IMG/VR virus record: IMGVR_UViG_2778261631_000004
Strand: one strand, 5' to 3'
DNA: 37,064 nt
DNA from: a virus
Taxonomy: Duplodnaviria; Heunggongvirae; Uroviricota; Caudoviricetes
Shown here piece by piece: positions 935-37,064 of this stretch; the stretch's first letter is position 1; every line of letters begins with the position of its first letter. A program made the position numbers and the translations under genes. The notes below the pieces were generated by a model. That model ran no database searches. It had not been told where the DNA came from and saw only the letters and a list, made by a program, of their open reading frames with translations.

Positions 935-2620
935 GTGAATATAAACGTCGCCGAATTGTTAAATGGGAATTACATTCTGTTATTATTTGTGGTCCTCGCG
1001 CTTGGGCTATGTCTCGGAAAGTTACGACTTGGTTCGATCCAACTGGGTAATTCCATTGGCGTTTTAGTCGTATCGCTGTTATTAGGCCAACAACATTTCA
1101 GCATTAACACCGATGCGCTTAATCTTGGCTTTATGCTGTTTATTTTCTGCGTCGGGGTCGAAGCCGGACCGAACTTTTTTTCCATTTTTTTTCGCGATGG
1201 GAAAAATTACCTAATGTTAGCACTGGTGATGGTTGGCAGTGCGCTGGTGATCGCCTTAGGGTTAGGTAAGCTGTTTGGCTGGGATATTGGCCTGACGGCC
1301 GGTATGTTAGCAGGCTCTATGACGTCGACACCGGTTCTGGTCGGTGCTGGCGATACACTGCGTCATTCCGGCATGGAAAGCAGGCAGCTCTCACTGGCAC
1401 TGGATAATCTGAGCCTCGGGTATGCCTTAACCTATTTAATCGGTCTGGTGAGTTTGATTGTTGGTGCGCGTTACTTGCCGAAATTGCAGCATCAGGACTT
1501 ACAGACCAGCGCCCAGCAAATCGCCCGCGAACGTGGCCTGGACACTGATGCCAACCGTAAGGTTTATTTACCGGTGATCCGCGCCTATCGCGTCGGCCCG
1601 GAGCTGGTGGCCTGGACCGACGGCAAAAATCTGCGTGAACTGGGTATTTATCGACAAACCGGCTGCTACATTGAACGTATTCGACGTAACGGGATTCTGG
1701 CAAATCCAGACGGTGATGCCGTGCTACAAATGGGCGATGAAATAGCGTTGGTAGGCTATCCCGACGCCCATGCCCGACTCGATCCCAGCTTCCGTAACGG
1801 TAAAGAAGTTTTCGATCGTGACCTTCTCGACATGCGTATCGTCACTGAAGAAGTGGTCGTTAAAAACCATAACGCTGTAGGTAAACGTCTCGCACAACTG
1901 AAGTTGACCGATCACGGTTGCTTCCTTAACCGCGTCATTCGTAGCCAGATTGAGATGCCGATAGATGACAACGTCGTGCTTAACAAAGGTGACGTTTTAC
2001 AAGTCAGCGGTGATGCCCGTCGCGTAAAAACCATCGCCGATCGCATCGGCTTTATCTCGATTCACAGCCAGGTCACTGACCTGCTGGCATTTTGCGCCTT
2101 CTTTGTTATTGGGCTGATGATCGGGATGATCACCTTCCAGTTCAGCACATTCAGTTTCGGCATGGGGAACGCTGCCGGGTTGTTATTCGCCGGAATTATG
2201 CTGGGCTTTATGCGTGCTAACCACCCGACCTTCGGTTACATTCCGCAAGGTGCATTAAGCATGGTGAAAGAGTTCGGCTTGATGGTGTTTATGGCAGGCG
2301 TTGGTCTGAGCGCCGGTAGCGGTATTAATAACGGCCTGGGCGCGATTGGCGGTCAGATGTTGATTGCCGGATTAATTGTCAGTCTTGTGCCCGTGGTTAT
2401 CTGTTTCTTGTTCGGTGCTTATGTATTGCGAATGAACCGCGCACTGTTGTTCGGCGCAATGATGGGCGCACGCACCTGCGCGCCGGCAATGGAGATCATC
2501 AGTGATACAGCTCGCAGTAACATCCCTGCGCTGGGCTACGCGGGCACCTACGCAATCGCCAACGTCCTGCTGACGCTGGCAGGGACAATCATCGTCATGG
2601 TATGGCCAGGATTAGGATAA
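935..2620 (+). CDS. ybjL: Putative AAE-family transporter YbjL (two membrane domains flanking cytoplasmic TrkA-C-like domains)
   Basis: 561-aa ORF, hydrophobic N- and C-terminal halves with soluble central region; recognisable as YbjL; starts with a non-ATG (GTG) codon. Confidence 0.9.
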
Positions 2621-3164: not shown

Positions 3165-4265
3165 TCATTCCATTTCGAAATCATCAATCCTCACTTCAAG
3201 CTCCAGACTGGTCGTAAAACCGTTATCCGGGCTGACAGTATGCGTCAGGGTGGTAATAGTCCATTCCGCATCATCTATCGGCTGTTTAAAGCCACTGACT
3301 TTCACTGGCATTTCCGTGTAGAGATCTGCCCGACCTTCTGCCAGTTGTAGCGAGAATGACGCAACACCGCGTTGCAGGCGTTCCCACTGCATTTTCGCTG
3401 CCCGTTCGGCGTTGCCCCGGTTGGCATAGGTGCGATTAAGTACCAGCACGTTTTCATCCGTACCCACCAGGTAATCGCCCTGCTTCGCTTCCGGCTCTTT
3501 CTTCTGCTTCTTAGTTCTGCGCTTACGCTTCACCGTGGTGCTTTCTTTCTTCGCAGGTTCGCGGGTATGCAACCAGCTGGCAATTACGCCCGTGTAGGCT
3601 CCGCGATCTGCCAGGGTAAAGCGGTGACTGTCGCCGTCCTTGCGTGTGATAGTGATCACTGGCAGTGGTTTACCAGTGGCGCTTTTGCCCTGCCCCTGCC
3701 GGATGAATAACAGATTGCCATTTTTCACCGACGCGATGGCACCGTACTGTCGCGCCAGCCGCATCAGAAAACTGCCGTCACTCTCATTAGTCTGGTCTAT
3801 ATGCTCCACGGGCTTATCCGACAGGTCTTTACCCAGTGCCATCTTCAGCTTGTGCCGCGCGGCTATTTCCTTCACCACTTCCCCGACAGTGGTCTTGTGC
3901 CACGATTTTTCACGGCGGGTATTCAGCGTTTCACGAAAATCAGCACTTCGCGCCCGGATAGTCAGGCGATCCGGTGCGCCAGTGTGTTCAATCTCGTCCA
4001 CCGTGAATGCCCCTTTCGGGAAAAGCGGCTGCCCCTTCCAGCCCAGCGCCAGCGTAATAACCGCACCACGACGCGGCAGCACGATTTTTCCGTCGGCGTC
4101 GTCCAGTTCCAGATCAAGCTGGTCCGCTTCAAAGCCCCGGTTATCCGTCAGCGTCAGACTCATCAGGCGGTTGTCCAGCACTGTGGTGATATCCCTGCCC
4201 TCAATACTGATGCTGAATGCGGGAGTTTTGTTGCCTTTGTTAAGCAGTTCAGAGCTGAAATTCAC
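3165..4265 (-). CDS. D: Tail protein D (late control protein D)
   Basis: 366-aa ORF at the end of the tail operon after U, matching P2 gpD in position and size. Confidence 0.85.
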   Translation of the reverse strand: MNFSSELLNKGNKTPAFSISIEGRDITTVLDNRLMSLTLTDNRGFEADQLDLELDDADGKIVLPRRGAVITLALGWKGQPLFPKGAFTVDEIEHTGAPDRLTIRARSADFRETLNTRREKSWHKTTVGEVVKEIAARHKLKMALGKDLSDKPVEHIDQTNESDGSFLMRLARQYGAIASVKNGNLLFIRQGQGKSATGKPLPVITITRKDGDSHRFTLADRGAYTGVIASWLHTREPAKKESTTVKRKRRTKKQKKEPEAKQGDYLVGTDENVLVLNRTYANRGNAERAAKMQWERLQRGVASFSLQLAEGRADLYTEMPVKVSGFKQPIDDAEWTITTLTHTVSPDNGFTTSLELEVRIDDFEME

Positions 4266-4747
4266 GACAGCAGCCCTCCCACCGTTTTACTGATATCACT
4301 TAAGGCAGATGTTGCCGTGTCCTGCAGATTATTCAGTTGCGCACTGAGATCACCGAACATATCGGACAATGATTCATCCACCCTTTTGAGCGACAGGGTG
4401 AACTCAATCCGGCGCGGCATACCGTCGCGGAAAAACTCCGTTTTAGTCTGATTCAGTCCCTCAATCACATACATGCCATAAATCGTGCCGCTGCCTTCAA
4501 TCAGGGGCCATGCTTTCCCCTGTTCTGCCATCTGCTCAAGTGCCAGCAACGACAGCCTGCCGCCTGTTATCTCCGGCATAAGAACACCGGAAAGCGTCAG
4601 CATGTCGTTGTCCGGTCCCAGAAACTGCGTGGACGGACGACGGTTTACCCGGCTGTTTGCCGCATGTCGCCAGCTGCGCTGATACTGCAGCTCCTGATAC
4701 GGCACGGTGCGCAGCATAAACACGTACAATCCCAGCACCATCATCAT
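4262..4747 (-). CDS. U: Tail protein U
   Basis: 161-aa ORF between tape measure and D, overlapping stop/start with both; P2 gpU-like. Confidence 0.85.
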   Translation of the reverse strand: MMMVLGLYVFMLRTVPYQELQYQRSWRHAANSRVNRRPSTQFLGPDNDMLTLSGVLMPEITGGRLSLLALEQMAEQGKAWPLIEGSGTIYGMYVIEGLNQTKTEFFRDGMPRRIEFTLSLKRVDESLSDMFGDLSAQLNNLQDTATSALSDISKTVGGLLS

Positions 4748-7700
4748 GCGTCGTATCCCCCCTGATCGCTGTAGTTACTCCTGGCTTTTGCCTTCAGCCT
4801 GCGTTCACGTTCATCAAGCTGGCGGGCCACCTCCCGCGCAATATCCTGCGCACTTTGTCCTGGCTGCGTCTGGATGATGATCTGCGTCGGTGCCTCAATG
4901 CTGTAAACGGGCGGCACAGTGGCTGCGCGACTCACCATCGCTTCTCCACCTTTCGCGGGAAGTGCCAAAGGGTGCAACGGTGGAAGCTCTGCTGGCGCGG
5001 CAGCAACGCCCATCATTCCGGCGACAACCGCAGCCAGTGCAGCGGTATTTCTCCGGCTGGTCACGTTTGCCGGGCCGTTGACAATTTCCGGCCCGTTTTC
5101 ACCGACAATGCCGAACTGCCCGCGCGGGATATACCCGCCGCTGTCATACAACCCCGCAAAGCCATATCCCCATGACGGAAAACCACCCGATGTCATCATC
5201 ACTTTACCGTCTGCATTCACCGTCGCAGGTTGCTGACGCGTCACGCTTTCCGGCAGTTTTGCCTTTGCGGCTTCTTTACTGACAATGCCGAGTTTCTCCA
5301 GCAACCAGGAAACGCCGGATTTCAGGGAGTCCAGCGGATGCATGACCATATTCAGCCCTTCCGCCAGTACCTCCCCGAATCGCCGCCCCATTGCCGCTGC
5401 ACTCTGCAGTTCGGCAGAGGTCGACTTAACGGGCGTCAGCAGATCAGTAAACCAGCCCCACAGCGCCTGTACTTTGTCGCCAATCCACTGAAACACAGGC
5501 TTAAGTGGTTCGAATGCAGCACTGATGGGACCTGCCGCCGCTTTGAATCCTTCCACCACGCCACCGAGAAATGCGGTGATGGGTTGCCAGTATTTCCAGA
5601 CAACCAGCGCCACGCCCGCCAGTGCAGTAACCACAAGACCTATCGGACTGAGCAGAGCACCTAACAGACCAGATATGGCATACAGAGCAACGCGCAGCAT
5701 CGCCAGCGGGCCGGATGCCAGCACTCGCAGCACCGCGCCTGCGGCGGACAGTCCACCGCGCAGTACCGCCAGTGGATTCATAAACATCACAGCAACAGCA
5801 CGTAAACCGGATAATCCAGACCGCAAAAGTGCAACCGGCGCACCTGCTACAGTTTTCAGGACATTTCCCGTCAGTGATGCCGTGCGGCGCAAAGACGACA
5901 ACGGCGCAGTAAGTAAACCTGCGGCGTTGCCCGATGAAGCAAGCCCGCGTCGCAGCAGTGCAAGTGGTGCGCCAGCCAACCAGGACAACACGCTGCTGGT
6001 TCGTGTTACCGCTGCCGTAACGGAAGGTAACGTTTTGATACCCAGCACAGAGAATCCCAGACGGATGACTGCCAGCGGCCCCAGCACTGCAGCCAGCGCC
6101 ACCGCTAAGGTACCGAGGCCCACGGTAACGGCAGCCACCACAGCGGCTACTTTCATCAGTGTGCCCGTCAGTTCCGGGTTAGCTTCCACCCAGCGACGCA
6201 ACGCCCCCGTGACGCTTTTCACCGTGTACAGAATATCCATCAGCGGCTGGCGCAGCGTTTCGCCCAGGCTACTGAAGGTGTTCCGCGCTCCGGTTTTGAC
6301 CAGCAACCACTGAGCAGAAAGTGAGTCTTTGTTGATGTCGGATTCTTTCTGCATGGAACCGAGCGCATCATTGCCCGCTGTCAGTTTTAGCTGGCGCTGC
6401 AGTTCCGGCAGGTTGTTTGCCAGTTTCGCCGCGTCATCGCCAAACTCTTTGCCAAACAACATGGTCATGGCAGACAGACGCTTGTCCTGCGGCAGCGCGT
6501 TCACCTTCTCCAGCACACGCTGGATAGTTCCCATCGCATCCTTCGTCATCTGCTTTTCAATCACTTCAGGATTGAGTTTCAGCAGATTCATCCCTTCAAA
6601 GAAACTCTTGCTTTGCATGGTGGCAATGGACAATTCACGCACCATCGCGTTTGCTGCACTGGCTGCAACCTCCGGCGCAGCGCCCAGTGTCAGAAAGGTG
6701 GAACCCAGCGCCGCCGCTTTACGATAATCCAGACGGTCAGCCACACCGCCCAGACGTTGCATGACATCAATAATGTCTGCCCCTTTCGACATGGCGTTAT
6801 CATCCAGATAGTTCAGCGCATCACCGAGCTGTTCAATATTGCGGGTAGGGATTTTGTAGAGCTGGGCGATTTTCCCCAGACTTTCTGACAGTTCATCCGC
6901 TGGCAGCTCAAAGGCTGTTGCCGCCTTTGCTGCCGTACTGGCGAAGGCCAGCAGGTCACGTTTCTGGTCTTCCCAGCTGTCGTCAGGGTTTGCGACGTTC
7001 ATGCGCGCACCACCTTCAACCAGTGCAGCGAAGTCCACCGCACCGTTTTCCATCGGCAACTGTTCGCTGGCAGCCTTGATGGCATCCTGCATTTCATAAA
7101 AACGTGCAGTGCGGTTGCCATTATCGTCACGCAGACCATTGACCTGCTTTGCCACACCTTTCATGGCATCTTCCATGCTGGTATAGCTTTTTACTGCCGC
7201 CATCACTGGCGTCCCCATTGCCAGCCCTGCCGCCGTGGTGGTGGCTCCGGCTCCTGCGATGCGATCGCGCACCTCCAGCGAACGGGCATAACTGGCACGC
7301 GCCACATTCATCCTGCGCTGAGCTTCCCCCAGTCGCTTCAGCCGCGCCTCCTGTTTCGACAGTTCCTGGTTATAACGTGATGTTTCACGGGCTAAACGGG
7401 CAGTTGCTCCCGCATCATCTTTCGCAGAAATTCCCGCCCGGTACAGTTCAGCACGCACAAGCGCCGTTTGCTTCTGCAAATATTTTTGTTGTTCTTCCAG
7501 ACGTTGGACTGCCAGCGTTTGCCGACCTAAAGCCACAAGATGCCTTTGTGATGGTTGTTCCATCGCCTCCAGCTCAGAGCTAAGCAAATTAGCCTTCTGT
7601 CTGGCATAGTTCAGCCTGTCGCCTAACTTCTTGTTATCGGCCTGCAGCTTGCGAAATTTTTCCAGGCTGTTACCCGCCTGATTGAGTTGCTTTAATGCGT

Positions 7701-24759: not shown

Positions 24760-25455
24760 TTAAAATTTAGCAAGCTCCATATAAGAAATAGCATCATTAA
24801 AGACCGACACATGTTCTTCAGGAATTATTGCCGAGGCTCCACTAGTTAGTTCAAAGCTAAATTTAGAGTCATGATATAGCCCCCCAACTTTTATTTTATC
24901 GAGTTTAAAATCATTATCCAAAACAAATTTTTTCAAATCATTTAGAGCATCTCCACTAGAATTCAGCTCTAAACACGCCCTTGTTTTATCAGTAACAGGA
25001 ACATTTGAAACTTTCACCTTTGAGATGGCGAAAACTTTGACTCCAAACTCCTCCCTAATTATTTTCATAAAAGCCTTGAGATCTACCGTCAAGTTTCCAT
25101 AGGCAACATTTACCCCTTCACCTTTTGACAAGAAATCAATAAAAGACTTAACTGTCTTTGGAGGATTATAAAAAGTCAACAAACATAATTTATTACTTAA
25201 TGTTTGGATAGAAAAACCAATCTGTTCAAAAACAATCCTTTCGAACTCTAAAATATCACCAAATGGATCAGAAACTGGCTCCAACATTATAGTTTTTTTA
25301 TTAAAAGTCGCAGATATTCCATTGTGAATAGTTTCAAACTTAGTAAAACCAGCACCAATAGCATCAGAATAAGGGGTGTTTTTGATAAAATCAAAGATCG
25401 CTTCAGAACTGGTTCTGATCTTTAATCTCATCCACTTTAATCTTAACTGTGACAT
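24760..25455 (-). CDS. Hypothetical protein, cargo gene 3 of 3 (about 231 aa), no recognisable motif
   Basis: A+T-rich ORF; ATG with AAGGAG Shine-Dalgarno 5 nt upstream, 2 codons inside the ORF-track start; 14-nt gap from upstream gene. Confidence 0.6.
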   Translation of the reverse strand: MSQLRLKWMRLKIRTSSEAIFDFIKNTPYSDAIGAGFTKFETIHNGISATFNKKTIMLEPVSDPFGDILEFERIVFEQIGFSIQTLSNKLCLLTFYNPPKTVKSFIDFLSKGEGVNVAYGNLTVDLKAFMKIIREEFGVKVFAISKVKVSNVPVTDKTRACLELNSSGDALNDLKKFVLDNDFKLDKIKVGGLYHDSKFSFELTSGASAIIPEEHVSVFNDAISYMELAKF

Positions 25456-25474
25456 ATCCACTCCTTATGATGAA

Positions 25475-26539
25475 TTAGCTAATTTCCATTATAATAGAAT
25501 AAGCTCTATTTTCAATTAATTTATTAAATCTATCGGTTTCTCTAGCTGAAAGCTTTTGAGGTTTACTGAAATATTGACCGTTAGACTTATATTTTTTCAC
25601 TCCTTTTACTAAATATGAAAAATTAGTACAGTTTAGTGGATCTCCGAATTGAGCTTCGAGTTCATAAATATCTGGGTCTGCTAGTTTCTCTTTAACCTTC
25701 CATTTTATTTTCCAGATATAAAAGCCTCTATCATAAAGATCACTAAGTTCATCAGATTTAAGAACTCCCTCTCCTTTCAGAGATGCTTTTGACACATGAA
25801 CTCCAGTTTCAGTATTTCCCTCTTCTGCTTCTATTGTTTCAGGTTTTGGATGATATACATAAGCATCAGTAACATCGTCTAATTCATATCCATCTAGGCT
25901 ACGGATTAATTTATCGAAAAACAGTGTCCTAACATCTGCGGAGCTATTATGAGCAAGAGTAATTTCGTTTAATTTTAAATCAAGATTACTGTCATTATCT
26001 TGTTCACTCTGGATCGAAATTATATGCCCGAGGAGGAGATCTTCATAATCTTTGAGATTCTCGTTATCGGGACGACGGATGCTATAACCTTTATCAATAG
26101 GCTCGATTTCAATTAAAGCTTCTTTATTTACAGCCTGCTTAAAATCGCTTTTACTATAATTGGTCGATAGATATCTTATATCTATAAGAACTCGAGAACC
26201 ATCAATAATAATTTTACAATAATCATCCTGAGCAGTTATTTCTTTTTTTAACTTCTCTGCTGCCACTATGATATCGTCCTTAGTGACACTGGATTCAATT
26301 CTTACACATGTATTTTTTTCAGCTCTTGTCTGACCTCCGAGTAATGTTGCTATCTTCTGATGTTCATAATAATCATGAGTCATCCGAGAGTAGTTTCTGG
26401 CTAGATCTTTTCTAGGGGTTTTTTTACAAATAATAGTACCTCTTTCCAAGAAAAGATCTTGTATTTCATTTAATGTAATCTGCTTTTGATTCAAAGCATC
26501 ACATAAAGCCTTATCAGTTACACTATGAATATTTTTCAT
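25475..26539 (-). CDS. Hypothetical protein, cargo gene 2 of 3 (about 354 aa), no recognisable motif
   Basis: A+T-rich ORF; start ATG overlaps the stop of the upstream gene in an ATGA arrangement with a GGGAG Shine-Dalgarno; ORF-track start is 4 codons upstream. Confidence 0.65.
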   Translation of the reverse strand: MKNIHSVTDKALCDALNQKQITLNEIQDLFLERGTIICKKTPRKDLARNYSRMTHDYYEHQKIATLLGGQTRAEKNTCVRIESSVTKDDIIVAAEKLKKEITAQDDYCKIIIDGSRVLIDIRYLSTNYSKSDFKQAVNKEALIEIEPIDKGYSIRRPDNENLKDYEDLLLGHIISIQSEQDNDSNLDLKLNEITLAHNSSADVRTLFFDKLIRSLDGYELDDVTDAYVYHPKPETIEAEEGNTETGVHVSKASLKGEGVLKSDELSDLYDRGFYIWKIKWKVKEKLADPDIYELEAQFGDPLNCTNFSYLVKGVKKYKSNGQYFSKPQKLSARETDRFNKLIENRAYSIIMEIS

Positions 26540-27600
26540 TTCGGCTCCCAAGAAATAACCTCAGAAGAAAAGAATTCTTTTACAGTAGAGACAACTTTGA
26601 CATCCAGATCTTCAAGTCTCTTTTTAGCCTCTTCATCCAGTCCATACTCATGAACATACTTTTCGATCCCACGCTGAAAATGCGACATAACTCTATTATC
26701 TTTCTCACGATACGCCAATCTTATTCTAATTTTATTTATACCATCTAAAATTTGATAATTAGAAAGCAAGTCTAGCAAATAAAAGAATTCATTATCGCTA
26801 TTACCTTTTCTATTGTAATATATAACAAATCCCTCTGGATAAACCATTTCCTCAATACCTTTAGCCCTATTGAATTTATAAACAGGACCATGTTTAATAA
26901 TCATAAATGGTGATAACAAAACTTCAATAGTTGCAGGAAGGTATTTTTCAGTTACAGCAACCTTATGGAAAATAAGTTGAGGATAATAGAATCCATAATC
27001 CTCATCTGGAAATTCTTTTTTTGCAATCAAGTCATTCATATCATTCGTTACTGCCAACATATAATTAATAAGAAATGGATCAATTATATGAATTTGCTGA
27101 CCAGCACATAACGGAATCTTTTCTAAGTTTACAGCCTTATCTCTCCTTCCTTTAGTAGGTTTAGGAGGATTAAAGAAATCATAAAAATCATGTTGCAATT
27201 GATTATCATGATTAAAAACAAATAATAAACCTCGAACTTCGAAATCAATTTGAGAAAAGTTATATTTTTCTGACCATTCCTGGCTATATCGAGCACAATC
27301 AATTGTTTTTGCTAAAGACTCTAATGCAGATTCTATCTTTGTTGCATTAATAGAACCAGCCTTATAACTTTTCAAATCAGTATTTAAATAAATAATTTTA
27401 TTTAAATATGGATCTTTATAACTAAATACCACATCCACTGGGTGTGTGTGCTTTTGTTTTTTACCTTCAGGCTTATGTTTTGTTTCATTATCACAAGAGA
27501 AATCTTGGTCACAGGGGCCATGCTGTTGCCACTTAAAACGACTCATAAGATCGTTAGAAATGCGTTTTGCTAAGTCTTCAATAGGGCCATTCTCTGCCAT
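26536..27600 (-). CDS. Hypothetical protein, cargo gene 1 of 3 (354 aa), no recognisable motif
   Basis: A+T-rich ORF with AAGGA Shine-Dalgarno upstream of the ATG; no Walker A or other signature visible. Confidence 0.65.
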   Translation of the reverse strand: MAENGPIEDLAKRISNDLMSRFKWQQHGPCDQDFSCDNETKHKPEGKKQKHTHPVDVVFSYKDPYLNKIIYLNTDLKSYKAGSINATKIESALESLAKTIDCARYSQEWSEKYNFSQIDFEVRGLLFVFNHDNQLQHDFYDFFNPPKPTKGRRDKAVNLEKIPLCAGQQIHIIDPFLINYMLAVTNDMNDLIAKKEFPDEDYGFYYPQLIFHKVAVTEKYLPATIEVLLSPFMIIKHGPVYKFNRAKGIEEMVYPEGFVIYYNRKGNSDNEFFYLLDLLSNYQILDGINKIRIRLAYREKDNRVMSHFQRGIEKYVHEYGLDEEAKKRLEDLDVKVVSTVKEFFSSEVISWEPK

Positions 27601-29268: not shown

Positions 29269-31710
29269 TTAATACAGGTTCCGCCACTTATCATCTTCCT
29301 GCAAACGCTGGTTCCGATAGAAGATACGCAGGCCTGCTCCTGACGGAATACTGCCACCGCGAAGGAGCAAATCGACCTCTTTCTCGCTGCCATCAAATCC
29401 TCTGGACTTCAGTTCATAGACGAGCTGCTGACGCTGATGCTCTGTAATTCGCTGTTTGTAGTCTTTACGCCGTTTCGGTTTAACCAGGCGTAATCTTGCT
29501 GCCAGTTCCCGGCGCTCTTTTTTGCTCATATTGTGCAGGTAATCGTGCAATTCCTTGTCATCCATGCAGGTAATATCAGTTCTGGTATCCCCATCTGCTG
29601 ATTTATCTTTCTCCTGTTGGTTCAAATTTTCAGCAAGGGGACAGTTATTGCCACGAGTCCAAGGGGCGCAAGCGCCCTGGTCGGCTGCCGCCTCCTGAAT
29701 GTCAACGGCCTTACGAACCATTTTCCACTTCACCGCATGAGTGCAGATCTTGCCCTCTGCAATGGGTGACCAGATGCCATAAATACGAATACCGTGATCG
29801 CCATAGGCGGTCGGCTCTTCGTTGATTTCATAAGCGGTTCTGATGAGGTGATATTTGCGGGGAACCAGTACGCCGCCCTGCTTCATGATGTAGGTGGCAA
29901 AACAGCCAGCATCAGCGGCAGCCAGGATGGCATCAAGGCGCGGGTTATCCAGTACCGGCGCACCTGCTTTTTTGTCCCCCTGTTGCCTTGCCGCCTGACC
30001 AGCCAGCAATCGCAGTTCACGGTAAGCCTGACGCCCCGGAATGCCAAAGAAGCGGAATTGCTGAACACGATGCAGAGACGCCCAGGCATTAACGTATTCG
30101 GCGTTATCACGCAGGGATTTACCCGTTTCCTTGCTGATCTCGCCAGCCAGACCACGCCCGTCAATGTTCTTACTGATGTATTTCGCGATGTAGCTTGTTG
30201 GCGTACCTTTGCGCGGGTTTATCAGCTCAGACTTAAAGCGTGGTTCCGTGTTATTACCCAGCTCCTCGCGGTCTTCACGAATGGCAAACTTACGCAACAA
30301 AGCAGTAATGGCGCGGCGATCTTTTTTGCGCATAAAACACAACAGGTGCCAGTGAACTGTACCGTCATGATGCGGCTCAGCCACCCGCACGCCATACCAG
30401 CGTAATCCGGCTTTGTGCATCGCCTTACGAAATGCAGCAAACATACCGACCAGATAATCACTGCTTTGTCTTACCGTCGCATTTGTCCAGGTCGGGTTGG
30501 GCCTGCCGTTATTTAGCGTGGAATGGAAACGTGACGGACAGGTGATGGTGTAGAAAACGGCGCAGTCACCACGCATTTCCGCGATAAGCTCCAGACCTTT
30601 AACACAGGCCATCATCTCATTGCGGCGATGCGCAGGGTTGCTGCTGCTGGCGTTTACCACGTCTTCCATATCCAGCGTGTCGCCGTCTTCGTTCACCAGT
30701 TCATGAGAACGGAAAAACTCCAGCGACTTACGGCGCTGCTCACGTTTATGCATCACGGCTTCATAGCTGACATAGGGAGATGCTTTTTTGCTGACCAGGC
30801 AAACAGCACGCAACTGCTCTTCCCGCCATTCGCAACGCATCTTCCATAATTTCCGATACCACCAGTCGGCGCATAACATACGCGCCAGCGAACCCGGAAT
30901 GAGTTCATAAGGCACGGGTTTACGGCGGTTTCTTTTCCGACGGAGTTGCTCAAACGCAGGCGGGATAACATCCAGACGCAGGGTTTCCGCTGCCACCTTT
31001 TCCCATGTCTTGCGGATTTCTTCTGGCGTAACATCATCGGTGGCATACAAATCGCCACAAGCTGTATCAAGGCACATGCTCATATGCGCAGCTACCAAGG
31101 TGGACAGGCGTTTCACCTGATCCTGACTCATTTCAGGCAGGATCAGCAGGCCGTCCAGCCCTTCATGGCTTGCCATAAAGCGAAAAGAAGTGGATAGCTG
31201 ACTGTCGCGTACATGCTCCAGTCGTTCCAAGCATGGCTTAATCGTCTCACGCAAATAGCGGGAATAAGCCTTTGGCCTGCCCAGGCTGCTGAAGTATTTA
31301 ATACGTTGCATCAGCGGCTTGCTGATATGGGAAGGCTGGGCGTTGACGTCCGCCAGAATGGCCATGTCTGGATTAAAACGCTGCTGCTCATGCGCCAGCT
31401 TTGCCCGGCTAATTAGCTTATCCTGCTCCATTTCGCGTTGGACAGGATCACGGGATTCATTAAAGAAATAACGCTCCCAGACCTGATCACTCAGTGCCTC
31501 GCGGCGCAGTTGTTCCTGCTCGTTATCGGCAGCGTACAGAGTGATCAGGTTTGAAAGCGCAGAAACCGGCGCAACTTCCGCCGGGTCCAGATAAGGGTTA
31601 ATGGCCTTTTTCGGGCTGTTCCATGAGAATGCTGCGGCGACCTCGTTAAAGCCGCTGCAGTTGTTCATATCAGCATGGCTCATGCACGCACTCCGTACAC
31701 GACGGAACAA
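29269..31710 (-). CDS. A: Replication initiation protein A (rolling-circle nickase)
   Basis: About 800-aa ORF in the early operon position of P2/186 gene A; true start may be an internal Met a few codons in. Confidence 0.85.
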
Positions 31711-34123: not shown

Positions 34124-34642
34124 TCACAGCAAACCGAATGAAGCACCGAGGCCAGTCACGGTATCAACTGCACTCGCCATCGCAGGATTAGCCTGTAAAC
34201 GGGCCTGCAATGAAACAGCCGCCAGCGCCATCAGTCGTGTTACAGAGTTAATGCTGCTGATAGCATCACGACGACCTGCACTGGTTTTTACATCGCCAGA
34301 TACCGCACCTGCAGCAACACGCCCGATCTCTGCGGTTGCACTCATGACGTAATGTGGCAGTTTCTCTTTTGCTACCTCATTAATCGGTACACATGGCAGA
34401 CAATGAATCTGTGCCAGAAAACCATCTACCAACGTTGAATCTTCAGTCAGATCGGTAAGCAGCCAGATTTCTGGTGCGGTTAATAAATGAGGTTGAGCTG
34501 GGTTCAGCTTGTTCCGCAGAATCTGCACATTCATGCCCGCACGTTCTGCCAGTTGCACCAGATTGTGGCGCAGTGCGAATGCACGACAGGCTTCATCAAA
34601 ATGTGGATGTTTGGAAACTTGGTAATCAAACATGGTTTTCAA
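34124..34642 (-). CDS. cII: CII-type regulatory protein (186 CII-like)
   Basis: 172-aa ORF ([27 protein letters not shown] ... [23 protein letters not shown]) immediately after the Apl/Cox-like gene. Confidence 0.7.
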
Positions 34643-34697
34643 CTCCGAACTTATCGCAAAATCGAACTCAGCGTCTTATTGCGAAAATAGACGTCTA

Positions 34698-34901
34698 TTA
34701 AGCAGACAAAGCATCAACAGTCAGAGCAGCCAGGTTAATCATTACCTTTTCACGTTTTTTGTCTTTACGAAGACGATGACGAGGTAGTCGGCCATCAGCC
34801 AACATGTCGTTAATCGTATCAATAGAAAGGCCAGTCAGTTCGCTATAACGTTCGATTGTGACATGTGGTGTATTCAGAGTAATTGAAATGTTAGGTGTCA
34901 T
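34698..34901 (-). CDS. Apl/Cox-like small DNA-binding protein (excision/immunity control)
   Basis: 67-aa basic ORF with HTH-like segment, first gene of the lytic operon, divergent from cI. Confidence 0.5.
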
Positions 34902-34959
34902 AAGGCAACATTCCTTCTAGATATGGCTTGTGGCGAGCCGTTGTTTGTCGTGATTAGTA

Positions 34960-35616
34960 GTGAAGGCTCCAAAAGAACACTTCTGGTTCAACTTTAAGAT
35001 CGCTTTTGGAATCTGTCAACGAATTTTGGATTTCTTTGGAGGACTTGTGGATTTCAATAGCGGCGGTAAGAAAGCCATAGAACGTTTAGTTGAAGCATAT
35101 GGGTTCGGTACTCGTCAGGCTCTCTGTGATCATTTAGGTGTTTCTAAGAGCACCATGGCAACGCGCTATATGCGTGATATTTTTCCAGCAGATTGGGTAA
35201 TCCAGTGCGCCCTTGAAACGGGCACCTCGCTTAATTGGCTAACAACAGGGCATGGTTCAAAGCAAGCATCAGCAAATACAAATACTATAGAAGTAGAAAA
35301 ATATTTATTGTCTGATGGAGCATTGCAGAAAGACGGTTTTTATATTTTTGATAAGGGATTTCTACCCTCTACGTTTAAAAAACCTTTTGTCATCACAGAT
35401 AACAATTCTGAATTTATTTGTGATAAAGAATTTGATGATATACGTGATGGTAAATGGGTAATAAGTATTGATGGCGAAATAACGATCCGTGACATTACTC
35501 GTTTACCCGGTGGAAGAATCTTCGTCGAGGGTGGAAACAGAGCCTTCGAATGCAAGATAGAAGACATTGAAATAATTGGTAAAATTATAAGTTTGACAGT
35601 CAAGTATGTTAAATAG
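34960..35616 (+). CDS. cI: CI-type immunity repressor (186 CI-like)
   Basis: N-terminal domain EAYGF...CALETG.SLNWL.TG as in 186 CI. ORF track starts at GTG 34960; a GTG at about 35047 preceded by GGAGGA is an alternative start giving a 189-aa product. Confidence 0.75.
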   Translation: MKAPKEHFWFNFKIAFGICQRILDFFGGLVDFNSGGKKAIERLVEAYGFGTRQALCDHLGVSKSTMATRYMRDIFPADWVIQCALETGTSLNWLTTGHGSKQASANTNTIEVEKYLLSDGALQKDGFYIFDKGFLPSTFKKPFVITDNNSEFICDKEFDDIRDGKWVISIDGEITIRDITRLPGGRIFVEGGNRAFECKIEDIEIIGKIISLTVKYVK

Positions 35617-35631
35617 TACCGGGAGGAAACT

Positions 35632-35823
35632 ATGCTTGGTAAGGTATTTTTTGTGGTTTTGTCATGTTCTTTGTTATTAAACCCACTAACTACCTATGCT
35701 AGAAATTATCCCTGCTCAGGGAAAAAGGGAGGTGTTTCTCACTGTACCTCAGATGGCAAATTCGTTTGCAATGATGGAACTATTAGTAAATCCAAAAAAA
35801 TCTGTACTAAAAACTCACGATAA
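35632..35823 (+). CDS. Small secreted cysteine-rich protein (63 aa) of unknown function
   Basis: N-terminal signal-peptide-like segment then 4 to 5 Cys in a Lys/Gly-rich about 40-aa mature part; A+T-rich; between cI and int. Confidence 0.45.
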
Positions 35824-36011
35824 CTTTTGTTTTTATATCTGCGTCTAAAATAAAAATGAGCCGCAGGTTAACCGCAAAAGTTACATGCTCACATAGCAAA
35901 AAGAATAGCCAACTTCATTATGGCTTCAGTGAGATGTATGGTCGTAGGATTTCATACATTGACACTGGTTATACATACAGTAAAAATGCTCTCTACTGGA
36001 GGGCATTTTTT

Positions 36012-37064
36012 ATGGCAGTACGAAAACTCACCACAGGGAAATGGCTTTGCGAATGTTACCCCGCCGGACGAAGTGGGCGTCGTGTGCGTAAACAATTCGC
36101 CACCAAAGGCGAAGCTCTGGCTTTTGAGCGCCACACGATGGAAGAAACCGAATCAAAGCCCTGGCTGGGCGAATCAGTGGATCGTCGAACCCTGAAAGAC
36201 GTGGTTGAGCTATGGTTCAAACTACATGGTAAATCTCTGACTGCTGGACAGCATGTCTATGACAAATTGCTGCTGATGGTTGACGCTCTAGGCAATCCTC
36301 TTGCAACCGATCTCACCTCTAAAATGTTTGCCCACTATCGAGATAAACGCCTGACAGGCGAGATCTACTTCAGCGAGAAATGGAAGAAAGGAGCAAGCCC
36401 GGTCACCATTAACCTGGAGCAAAGCTATCTAAGTAGTGTTTTTAGCGAACTATCCCGTCTGGGCGAATGGTCGTATCCGAACCCACTGGAGAACATGCGA
36501 AAATTCACCATCGCAGAAAAAGAGATGGCATGGCTTACCCATGAGCAGATTGTTGAATTGCTGGCTGATTGCAAACGTCAGGACCCAATTCTGGCACTGG
36601 TAGTTAAGATATGCTTAAGCACAGGCGCACGCTGGCGTGAAGCCGTAAATCTTACCCGCTCACAGGTGACCAAATACCGAATTACCTTTGTCAGAACGAA
36701 GGGGAAGAAAAACAGAAGCATCCCTATCAGTAAAGAGCTTTACGAAGAGATCATGGCGCTTGATGGGTTCAATTTCTTCACAGACTGCTATTTTCAATTT
36801 TTATCCGTGATGGAAAAAACGTCTATCGTGCTCCCTCGCGGTCAACTCACACACGTTCTGCGCCATACGTTTGCGGCGCACTTCATGATGTCGGGTGGAA
36901 ACATTCTGGCCTTACAAAAAATTCTCGGACACCACGATATAAAAATGACTATGCGTTACGCACATCTGGCACCGGATCATCTGGAAACGGCGCTCCGTTT
37001 CAATCCTCTGGCAACGCTGCCAAGTGGCGACAAAGTGGCGGCAGCGGTTGGCATTACCCCGTAA
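36012..37064 (+). CDS. int: Tyrosine integrase (P2/186 family)
   Basis: Start placed at MAVRKLTTGKW; C-terminal catalytic region HVLRHTFA ... LGHHDIKMTMRYAHL; ends exactly at the window edge. Confidence 0.9.
   Translation: MAVRKLTTGKWLCECYPAGRSGRRVRKQFATKGEALAFERHTMEETESKPWLGESVDRRTLKDVVELWFKLHGKSLTAGQHVYDKLLLMVDALGNPLATDLTSKMFAHYRDKRLTGEIYFSEKWKKGASPVTINLEQSYLSSVFSELSRLGEWSYPNPLENMRKFTIAEKEMAWLTHEQIVELLADCKRQDPILALVVKICLSTGARWREAVNLTRSQVTKYRITFVRTKGKKNRSIPISKELYEEIMALDGFNFFTDCYFQFLSVMEKTSIVLPRGQLTHVLRHTFAAHFMMSGGNILALQKILGHHDIKMTMRYAHLAPDHLETALRFNPLATLPSGDKVAAAVGITP

Follow-up and report, generated by a model that had tools for sequence, protein, structure and literature searches.

The DNA analysed here is the whole of a 37,064-nucleotide viral stretch (Caudoviricetes; IMG/VR record IMGVR_UViG_2778261631_000004; hereafter the window), in which a small open reading frame (ORF) lies between the genes for a 186-type CI repressor (cI) and a tyrosine integrase (int). 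This ORF occupies positions 35632-35823 of the + strand and comprises 63 codons, from ATG to TAA, both in the ORF list and on direct reading of the sequence. An earlier sequence-only reading of this DNA had located it between these two genes and in their orientation, which the coordinates confirm. The gene is not new, for databases already list it under the YdcA family, which has no assigned function. The best-supported reading of the sequence comparisons below is that this gene, ydcA, would be the constant first passenger of a variable cargo site at the cI-int junction. The features that concern it directly are as follows.

35047-35616, + strand: 186-type CI repressor gene with a GTG start, the first gene of the lysogenic operon (Phage_CI_repr E=2e-31, Phage_CI_C E=3e-29)
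35621-35626, + strand: Shine-Dalgarno sequence GGGAGG of the ydcA-like ORF, read in the sequence
35632-35700, + strand: codons 1-23, predicted Sec-type signal peptide with a hydrophobic core and predicted cleavage after T-Y-A
35701-35823, + strand: mature YdcA domain of 40 residues with 4 Cys and a net charge of +7, plus the stop codon (NF007463, PF27300, selection, AlphaFold)
36012-37064, + strand: tyrosine integrase gene, ending at the window end (Int_N E=3e-32, Phage_integrase E=7e-22; RefSeq 'phage integrase')

The cI stop codon (35614-35616) is separated from the ORF by 15 nt, and 188 nt lie between the end of the ORF and the int ATG (36012). A pattern scan of the 15-nt gap found no promoter-like site and no terminator-like site on the + strand. 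With so short a gap and no such site in it, expression together with cI is the natural expectation; judged by its position in the cI operon and by analogy with phage 186, whose annotated promoter pL transcribes cI and int, the ORF is very likely expressed with cI in the lysogen. The sequence-only reading had asked for a ribosome-binding site and for conservation, and both were found: GGGAGG lies 5 nt before the ATG and the ORF is conserved in relatives. Like a moron, the gene is present in some members of the phage group and stands outside the conserved backbone, but it lacks the flanking promoter and terminator of its own that mark a classical moron, the nearest terminator-like hairpin being 158 nt past its stop, at the start of int. 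The ORF was also described as A+T-rich, which holds in so far as its G+C content is 35% against 50.5% for the window and 49% for int; the same is true of cI (38%) and the downstream spacer (36%), so that A+T-richness is a property of the whole immunity block and not of the ORF alone.

The product looks like an exported small protein. Its N-terminus consists of Lys4, a hydrophobic core (maximum Kyte-Doolittle mean over nine residues, 2.72) and the sequence T-Y-A, and the 40 residues of the predicted mature part include 4 Cys, 7 Lys, 2 Arg and 5 Gly, with a pI of 9.7 and a mass of ~4.3 kDa. No lipobox with a conserved Cys was found: Cys12 of the signal peptide is not conserved, and a lipobox-like motif occurs in 2 of 86 family presequences.

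Against the NCBIfam model NF007463 (PRK10040.1-2) the ORF protein scores 115.8 bits, the curated cut-off being 93, and it is best matched by this model and not by NF007462. It matches phrog_6000 (E=2e-34), a family without assigned function, and the Pfam family PF27300 (YdcA) is precomputed for the database cluster that holds it; a direct Pfam scan of the ORF with a local copy lacking PF27300 gave only a sub-threshold match to GULLO2. An identical RefSeq protein, WP_000900883.1, is labelled either 'YdcA family protein' or 'hypothetical protein'. The ORF protein has the predicted signal peptide and the four-Cys motif, PCSGxKGGxSHC...FxCxDGxxSxSKxxC, that define membership of the family. The NF007463 score, the family alignments and the composition thus uphold the view that the ORF is truly a gene and that its product is small, Cys-rich and signal-peptide-like at the N-terminus; what the sequence-only reading missed is that the gene had been catalogued (PF27300, NF007463, WP_000900883.1) and has a chromosomal paralogue in Escherichia coli. 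Literature searches with the protein accessions, phrog_6000 and PF27300 returned nothing useful, and no transcript data for the ORF were found in the literature. The genes named 'ydcA' in the Neisseria GGI, in F/ColV plasmids and in papers on Bacillus appear to bear positional gene names.

At 50% identity the YdcA family falls into ~449 clusters, at 90% into 806, and it ranges over the Alpha-, Beta- and Gammaproteobacteria. In the family alignments the mature part carries the motif PCSGxKGG[VI]SHC..GKF[VI]CxDG[ST]xSxSKKxC, while the presequence is variable yet hydrophobic. In alignment A1 all sequences have Ala at the predicted -1 position; C28, C38, C46 and S52 are invariant in alignment A4, in which C58, K32, G33, G34, F44, D48, G49, S54 and K55 are at least 90% conserved, as is C58 in A1. 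Six members (P0056, P0058, P0060, P0062, P0099 and P0130) have a C-terminal Cys-rich extension, C.C.....C.GPRGG.YC...G.K.Y, with a weak resemblance to the PBCV basic adaptor domain that is below cut-off (E ~0.003-0.006); the bearers with a named source are Betaproteobacteria (Herbaspirillum).

Codon comparisons separate the two parts of the protein. Between the window gene and the 68%-identical allele of a related prophage locus, L003, the mature codons differ by 20 synonymous and 3 nonsynonymous changes (dN 0.046, dS saturated), and the signal-peptide codons by 5 synonymous and 16 nonsynonymous changes; for ydcA in the clade of Haemophilus phage HP2, dN is 0.04 and dS 0.52. The mature part is under strong purifying selection, and the signal peptide is free to vary.

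The DNA of the ORF is present in 648 of 5426 complete E. coli genomes (~12%), with an annotated coding sequence in all rows sampled across the identity range, and 632 of the 648 matches have at least 90% identity. The cI type of the window occurs in 638 E. coli genomes and is less well conserved than ydcA, 479 of its matches being at 80-90% identity. Matches of ydcA to E. coli 'plasmids' represent the same prophage. The RefSeq locus L001, from which the cI coordinates were mapped, is 99.8% identical to the window region. A copy 94% identical to the window ydcA lies in a prophage remnant of E. coli BL21-Gold(DE3) (L181; NC_012947, 2905977-2911189); this remnant has decayed, its replication and cII genes being pseudogenes, with apl, cI, ydcA and int intact. 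The chromosomal paralogue in E. coli, covered by PF27300 and the NCBIfam PRK10040 models, is found at cybB-ydcA-hokB-trg. Like the window protein, it consists of a signal peptide and a four-Cys domain of ~37 residues with the motif PCSGxKGG[VI]SHC...GKFVCNDG[ST]xSxSKKxC, and the mature-coding DNA of the two is 78% identical; it is, however, a stand-alone host gene, whereas the window gene is prophage-borne and part of an immunity operon.

What lies between cI and int differs among related phages. Phage 186 has nothing at this place, its cI stop overlapping the start of int, and in ESSI2_ev129 the gap is 78 nt, without ydcA, which bears out the earlier claim that the gene is not part of the 186 core. 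In a group of relatives from E. coli and Klebsiella (L003-L009; ~5198-6529) a 61-residue YdcA allele directly precedes a KAP NTPase, which matches the candidate system PDC-S20 of PADLOC (E=1e-171). In vB_EcoM-813R9 the junction (L016, 4076-5752) holds PD-Lambda-1 (E=3e-120) without YdcA, and KP12, with a gap of equal size, probably also carries PD-Lambda-1 there. When the window is aligned with L003, cI and ydcA form one block of 68% DNA identity (65% and 69% for the CI and YdcA proteins, respectively), and the int module is 93% identical from 35923 onward. The block being single, ydcA belongs to the immunity module and has diverged in step with cI. A minor defence hotspot has been described in P2-like phages between integrase and primase (PMC13586616). 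Compared with the cargo and defence hotspots of P2-like prophages (Rousset et al. 2022, PMC9122126; PMC13586616), the cI-int junction is likewise a variable locus inside a conserved P2-like backbone, but YdcA matches no defence model and is the constant element of its site, at which the cassettes swap.

The linkage of cI and ydcA recurs in distant phage groups. A first IMG/VR scan gave near-identical copies only; for the repeat scan the HP2 protein served as lead. The Haemophilus phages HP2 and S2 contain an unannotated 60-codon ydcA (L002, 2920-3102). It resembles the window gene in family, strand and place, after a 186-type cI and before int, and differs in that its start overlaps the cI stop, its product is 53% identical to the window protein, and a secreted OB-fold protein is encoded before int. 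All 16 of the 16 HP2-like viral contigs have the order cI, ydcA, 0.8-1.3 kb of variable cargo, int; the cargo includes genes for membrane proteins, for the secreted OB-fold protein and for a ParE toxin module. In L101 the gene right after ydcA (4193-4954, equivalent to HP2 orf1(S)) codes for a protein that has a signal peptide and an OB-fold tRNA_anti-like domain (E=3e-13). On other viral contigs ydcA stands directly before or after S24/CI-type repressors, or directly before int, and it adjoins other repressors in L117, L121, L128, L135 and L150. An unbiased census of immediate neighbours in 80 species genomes has Phage_CI_repr as joint top neighbour family of ydcA, with integrase recurrent. 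The gene is also found as a stand-alone chromosomal gene.

The AlphaFold models of the protein (pLDDT 79 at full length, 84 for the mature part) show a small fold centred on a beta-hairpin. A Foldseek search of the Protein Data Bank returned as the top matches of both models the chains 7muc_AN and 7mud_AN, which are Dis2 (Lpg0823) of the Legionella Dot/Icm system, and on the strength of these models Dis2 is the only meaningful match of mature YdcA. The mature model superposes on one Dis2 lobe with a TM score of 0.67 and a root-mean-square deviation of 1.5 Å, with 43% identity over 35 columns, and the two proteins have in common the motif CS-K-GG-I-x-C...VCN-[DN]-G-x-x-S. In profile searches the match to Dis2 had E=5e-5 with the signal peptide included, 0.095 with a mature-only profile and 0.037 with a tandem-repeat family member; the link rests on fold and not on sequence, because the value of 5e-5 depended on aligned signal peptides. 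The relation, a fold match to a predicted model plus a shared motif, is probably one of homology. Dis2 is a stoichiometric component of the Dot/Icm cap, at whose rim it lies close to the outer membrane, and has two lobes and five disulfides. A small periplasmic fold pinned by disulfides, as predicted for the window protein, is shared with Dis2, but the window protein corresponds to one lobe and has four Cys. No genes of a type IV secretion system (T4SS) were found in the prophage, nor near ydcA on the one Acinetobacter plasmid checked. A link to conjugation, suggested by UniRef members named 'Conjugal transfer protein', was set aside on the same plasmid result. Profile matches to plant Pin-II proteinase inhibitors, LDL-receptor class A, hepsin and lysozyme (E=0.05-7) were dismissed as noise from Cys spacing. 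A relation to DUF3761 by circular permutation is conceivable.

Some of the longer family members link the domain to secreted nucleases. In these the order is signal peptide, YdcA domain, then one of three unrelated nuclease domains: Endonuclease_NS, a DNA/RNA non-specific endonuclease domain (P0213, P0185, P0217, P0287 and P0345), staphylococcal nuclease (SNase; P0120), or a PLD-like domain such as Nuc-type nucleases possess (P0215). One further member has the YdcA domain fused to a periplasmic VasL domain of the type VI secretion system (T6SS). A same-strand SNase gene lies near ydcA, in both gene orders, at 3 viral and 10 genomic loci (L120, L144, L150, L198, L205, L209, L220, L221, L223, L227, L229, L230 and L244); the spacing is mostly a few hundred nt, with the nuclease gene ~1 kb downstream in L150. 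In the census of 80 genomes SNase ties with the CI repressor as the most frequent neighbour family. These associations, taken with the secreted OB-fold protein that follows YdcA in HP2 and the basic nature of the domain (family median net charge +4), point to periplasmic DNA or another polyanion as the ligand, or to a role in localising secreted nucleases.

The DNA between ydcA and int contains several predicted RNA and promoter features.

35821-35883, + strand: imperfect long hairpin right after the ORF stop (RNA fold), within a 112-nt unannotated spacer
35933-35960, + strand: hairpin of the int leader, ATGTATG...CATACAT, kept through two-sided changes in relatives with other cargo
35959-35987, + strand: promoter-like TTGACA-17-AAAAAT upstream of int, a candidate only (10/12 in a consensus scan; conserved in relatives)
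35981-36011, + strand: terminator-like hairpin with a U-run (fold), ending at the int ATG, its 3' arm holding the int Shine-Dalgarno sequence GGAGGG

The 112-nt spacer (35824-35935) occurs in 598 E. coli genomes, each time beside ydcA, and nothing corresponding to it is present in the KAP-NTPase variant; its minus strand is terminator-like at 35877-35861. RNA folding of 35816-36030 gave z=-5.65 relative to shuffles. From ~35925 the leader is common to relatives irrespective of cargo, and in L003, L007 and L016 the terminator-like stem (35988-36004) is preserved with differing sequences (the leader comparison comprises five sequences only). The promoter-like sequence overlaps the leader hairpins. 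This arrangement suggests that the cargo genes are read from the cI promoter while int is attenuated, and the leader, as folded, might serve to attenuate integrase or to control its translation. A search of 34600-37064 against Rfam gave nothing except a chance CRISPR-DR match (E=0.59).

To the left of cI are two genes of the divergent lytic operon.

34124-34633, - strand: cII-like regulator (Pfam Phage_CP76 E=3e-42; RefSeq 'phage regulatory CII family protein' in L001)
34698-34901, - strand: apl/cox-like gene, the first of the lytic operon (weak Phage_Cox and HTH_17 matches; same place as 186 apl)

Elsewhere in the window, three successive genes on the minus strand (24760-27600) match PADLOC Hp3, Hp2 and Hp1 (E=1e-10, 2e-39 and 1e-64), with no Pfam matches; their place, with the terminase/portal region on one side and replication gene A (29269-31710) on the other, is that of the classical P2 defence hotspot. 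The window begins in chromosomal DNA, since 935-2620 (+ strand) is a host transporter gene with Asp-Al_Ex and TrkA_C domains, presumably ybjL. The other end of the prophage abuts rcdA/ybjJ in matching genomes.

We propose the following explanation. The 23-residue Sec signal peptide would be removed to leave in the periplasm a basic domain of 40 residues (~4.3 kDa), which two disulfide bonds most likely stabilise. Read with cI from the lysogenic promoter, ydcA would be made continuously in the lysogen, while the terminator-like hairpin before int probably keeps integrase low. The domain would bind a polyanionic periplasmic ligand, most plausibly DNA, and in the lysogen YdcA might act on incoming foreign DNA (from a superinfecting phage, conjugation or uptake), alone or with a periplasmic nuclease. 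Our confidence differs between the parts. That this is a gene, exported, and part of the cI operon we hold to be highly probable. The explanation taken whole, a lysogen-made periplasmic accessory protein of the cargo site that binds polyanions or DNA, seems to us evenly poised between right and wrong. A role related to DNA or polyanions is put forward tentatively, with doubt somewhat outweighing belief. The sequence-only reading had also named the ORF as a candidate exclusion factor, and the defence-hotspot location and the nuclease associations lend this indirect support; an actual exclusion phenotype we think unlikely.

Envelope-located superinfection exclusion proteins are known from several phages, among them Llp of T5, Cor of phi80 and SieA of P22. 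The likeness of YdcA to these is one of logic only, each being a small envelope-targeted prophage protein of the lysogenic state; there is no relation to them in sequence or fold, and YdcA has no lipobox such as marks lipoprotein exclusion factors of the Llp/Cor type.

Several observations weigh against a DNA-directed function of YdcA in the lysogen. PADLOC assigned the ORF protein to no family at E<=0.01. The nuclease fusions can be explained by anchoring or targeting just as by DNA binding, and many of the genomic SNase neighbours come from Rhizobiales-type genomes, so that not all are independent events. Dis2, the sole solved relative, is part of a secretion machine beneath the outer membrane and has no known contact with DNA. 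The net charge of the domain, with a family median of +4, is as low as 0 in some members. In Moraxella, Acinetobacter and other phages ydcA sits in tail or Mu-like early modules, outside the immunity region. Finally, in the only experimental work found on the family, deletion of the chromosomal ydcA sensitises E. coli W to 300 mM 3-hydroxypropionate, and acid induction of this gene under YdcI control is cited in the same paper (PMC7642389); this phenotype points to envelope or stress physiology and not to DNA.

Of the other explanations, the one that survives best is that the domain is an outer-membrane-proximal adaptor, which docks on the periplasmic face of the outer membrane or on a complex there and in the lysogen alters an envelope structure such as a receptor, a secretin or a lipoprotein complex; in the nuclease fusions it would be a localisation tag. 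The standing of Dis2 as best structural match, with its location near the outer membrane, fits this idea, as does the fusion to the periplasmic VasL domain, and lipid A or the head groups of phospholipids are conceivable partners of the basic surface. Against this, the mature-only sequence match to Dis2 is not significant (E=0.095, 0.037), the prophage has no secretion system, and three unrelated nuclease fusion partners together with the SNase neighbours point more specifically to DNA. We consider an adaptor function unlikely. A somewhat less probable explanation is lysogenic conversion in favour of host fitness under envelope or acid stress: the prophage would provide an additional, constitutive copy of a periplasmic host protein that assists in acid or organic-acid stress and does not act against phages. 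The prophage gene is a paralogue of the chromosomal ydcA whose deletion phenotype and cited acid induction are described above, and the BL21 remnant has retained cI-ydcA-int intact despite its decayed replication genes; the phenotype comes, however, from a single study and is without mechanism, and a role in host fitness leaves the recurrent placement beside repressors of unrelated phages, the nuclease fusions and the defence genes at the same junction unexplained.

It is improbable that YdcA regulates or inhibits a periplasmic nuclease such as the host endonuclease I. Small same-strand genes beside nuclease genes do resemble nuclease-inhibitor pairs, but a specific inhibitor would hardly be expected to be fused covalently in front of three nucleases of unrelated structure, and no nuclease gene adjoins the ORF in the prophage region. 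The sequence-only reading had further suggested a toxin-like peptide, and a secreted toxin or bacteriocin would agree with a small, Cys-rich, basic product that is predicted to be exported and has weak Pin-II profile matches (E=0.07-3). These matches, like that to the LDL-receptor profile, are at noise level and mirror the Cys spacing. The family includes single-copy chromosomal genes in ordinary contexts, there is no toxin/immunity pairing or adjacent immunity gene, PADLOC gives no match, and bacteriocin processing or export genes are absent; the suggestion is therefore rejected as very improbable. A chance ORF in an untranslated cI-int spacer, for which small size and nothing else speaks, is excluded for practical purposes by the codon-level pattern of conservation, that is, the excess of synonymous changes, as well as by the above-cut-off score of the hidden Markov model, the 806 homologous clusters at 90% identity and the good ribosome-binding site.

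The annotation of this gene in itself adds nothing new; its value lies in leads on the function of a widespread 'y-gene' family. These are the linkage to repressors in two distant phage groups, a fold in common with a secretion-system subunit, and the recurrent fusion to, or adjacency with, secreted nucleases, and they make the function of YdcA directly testable with simple experiments. The most far-reaching interpretation, that the YdcA domain is an unrecognised periplasmic module for DNA binding or DNA entry that occurs in secreted nucleases, in Dis2 and, tied to the repressor gene, in P2/186- and HP2-type prophages, and forms in lysogens a barrier to foreign DNA, we regard as more doubtful than an exclusion phenotype as such. 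If it were true, a periplasmic barrier present in every lysogen would be a new kind of superinfection or DNA-uptake exclusion.
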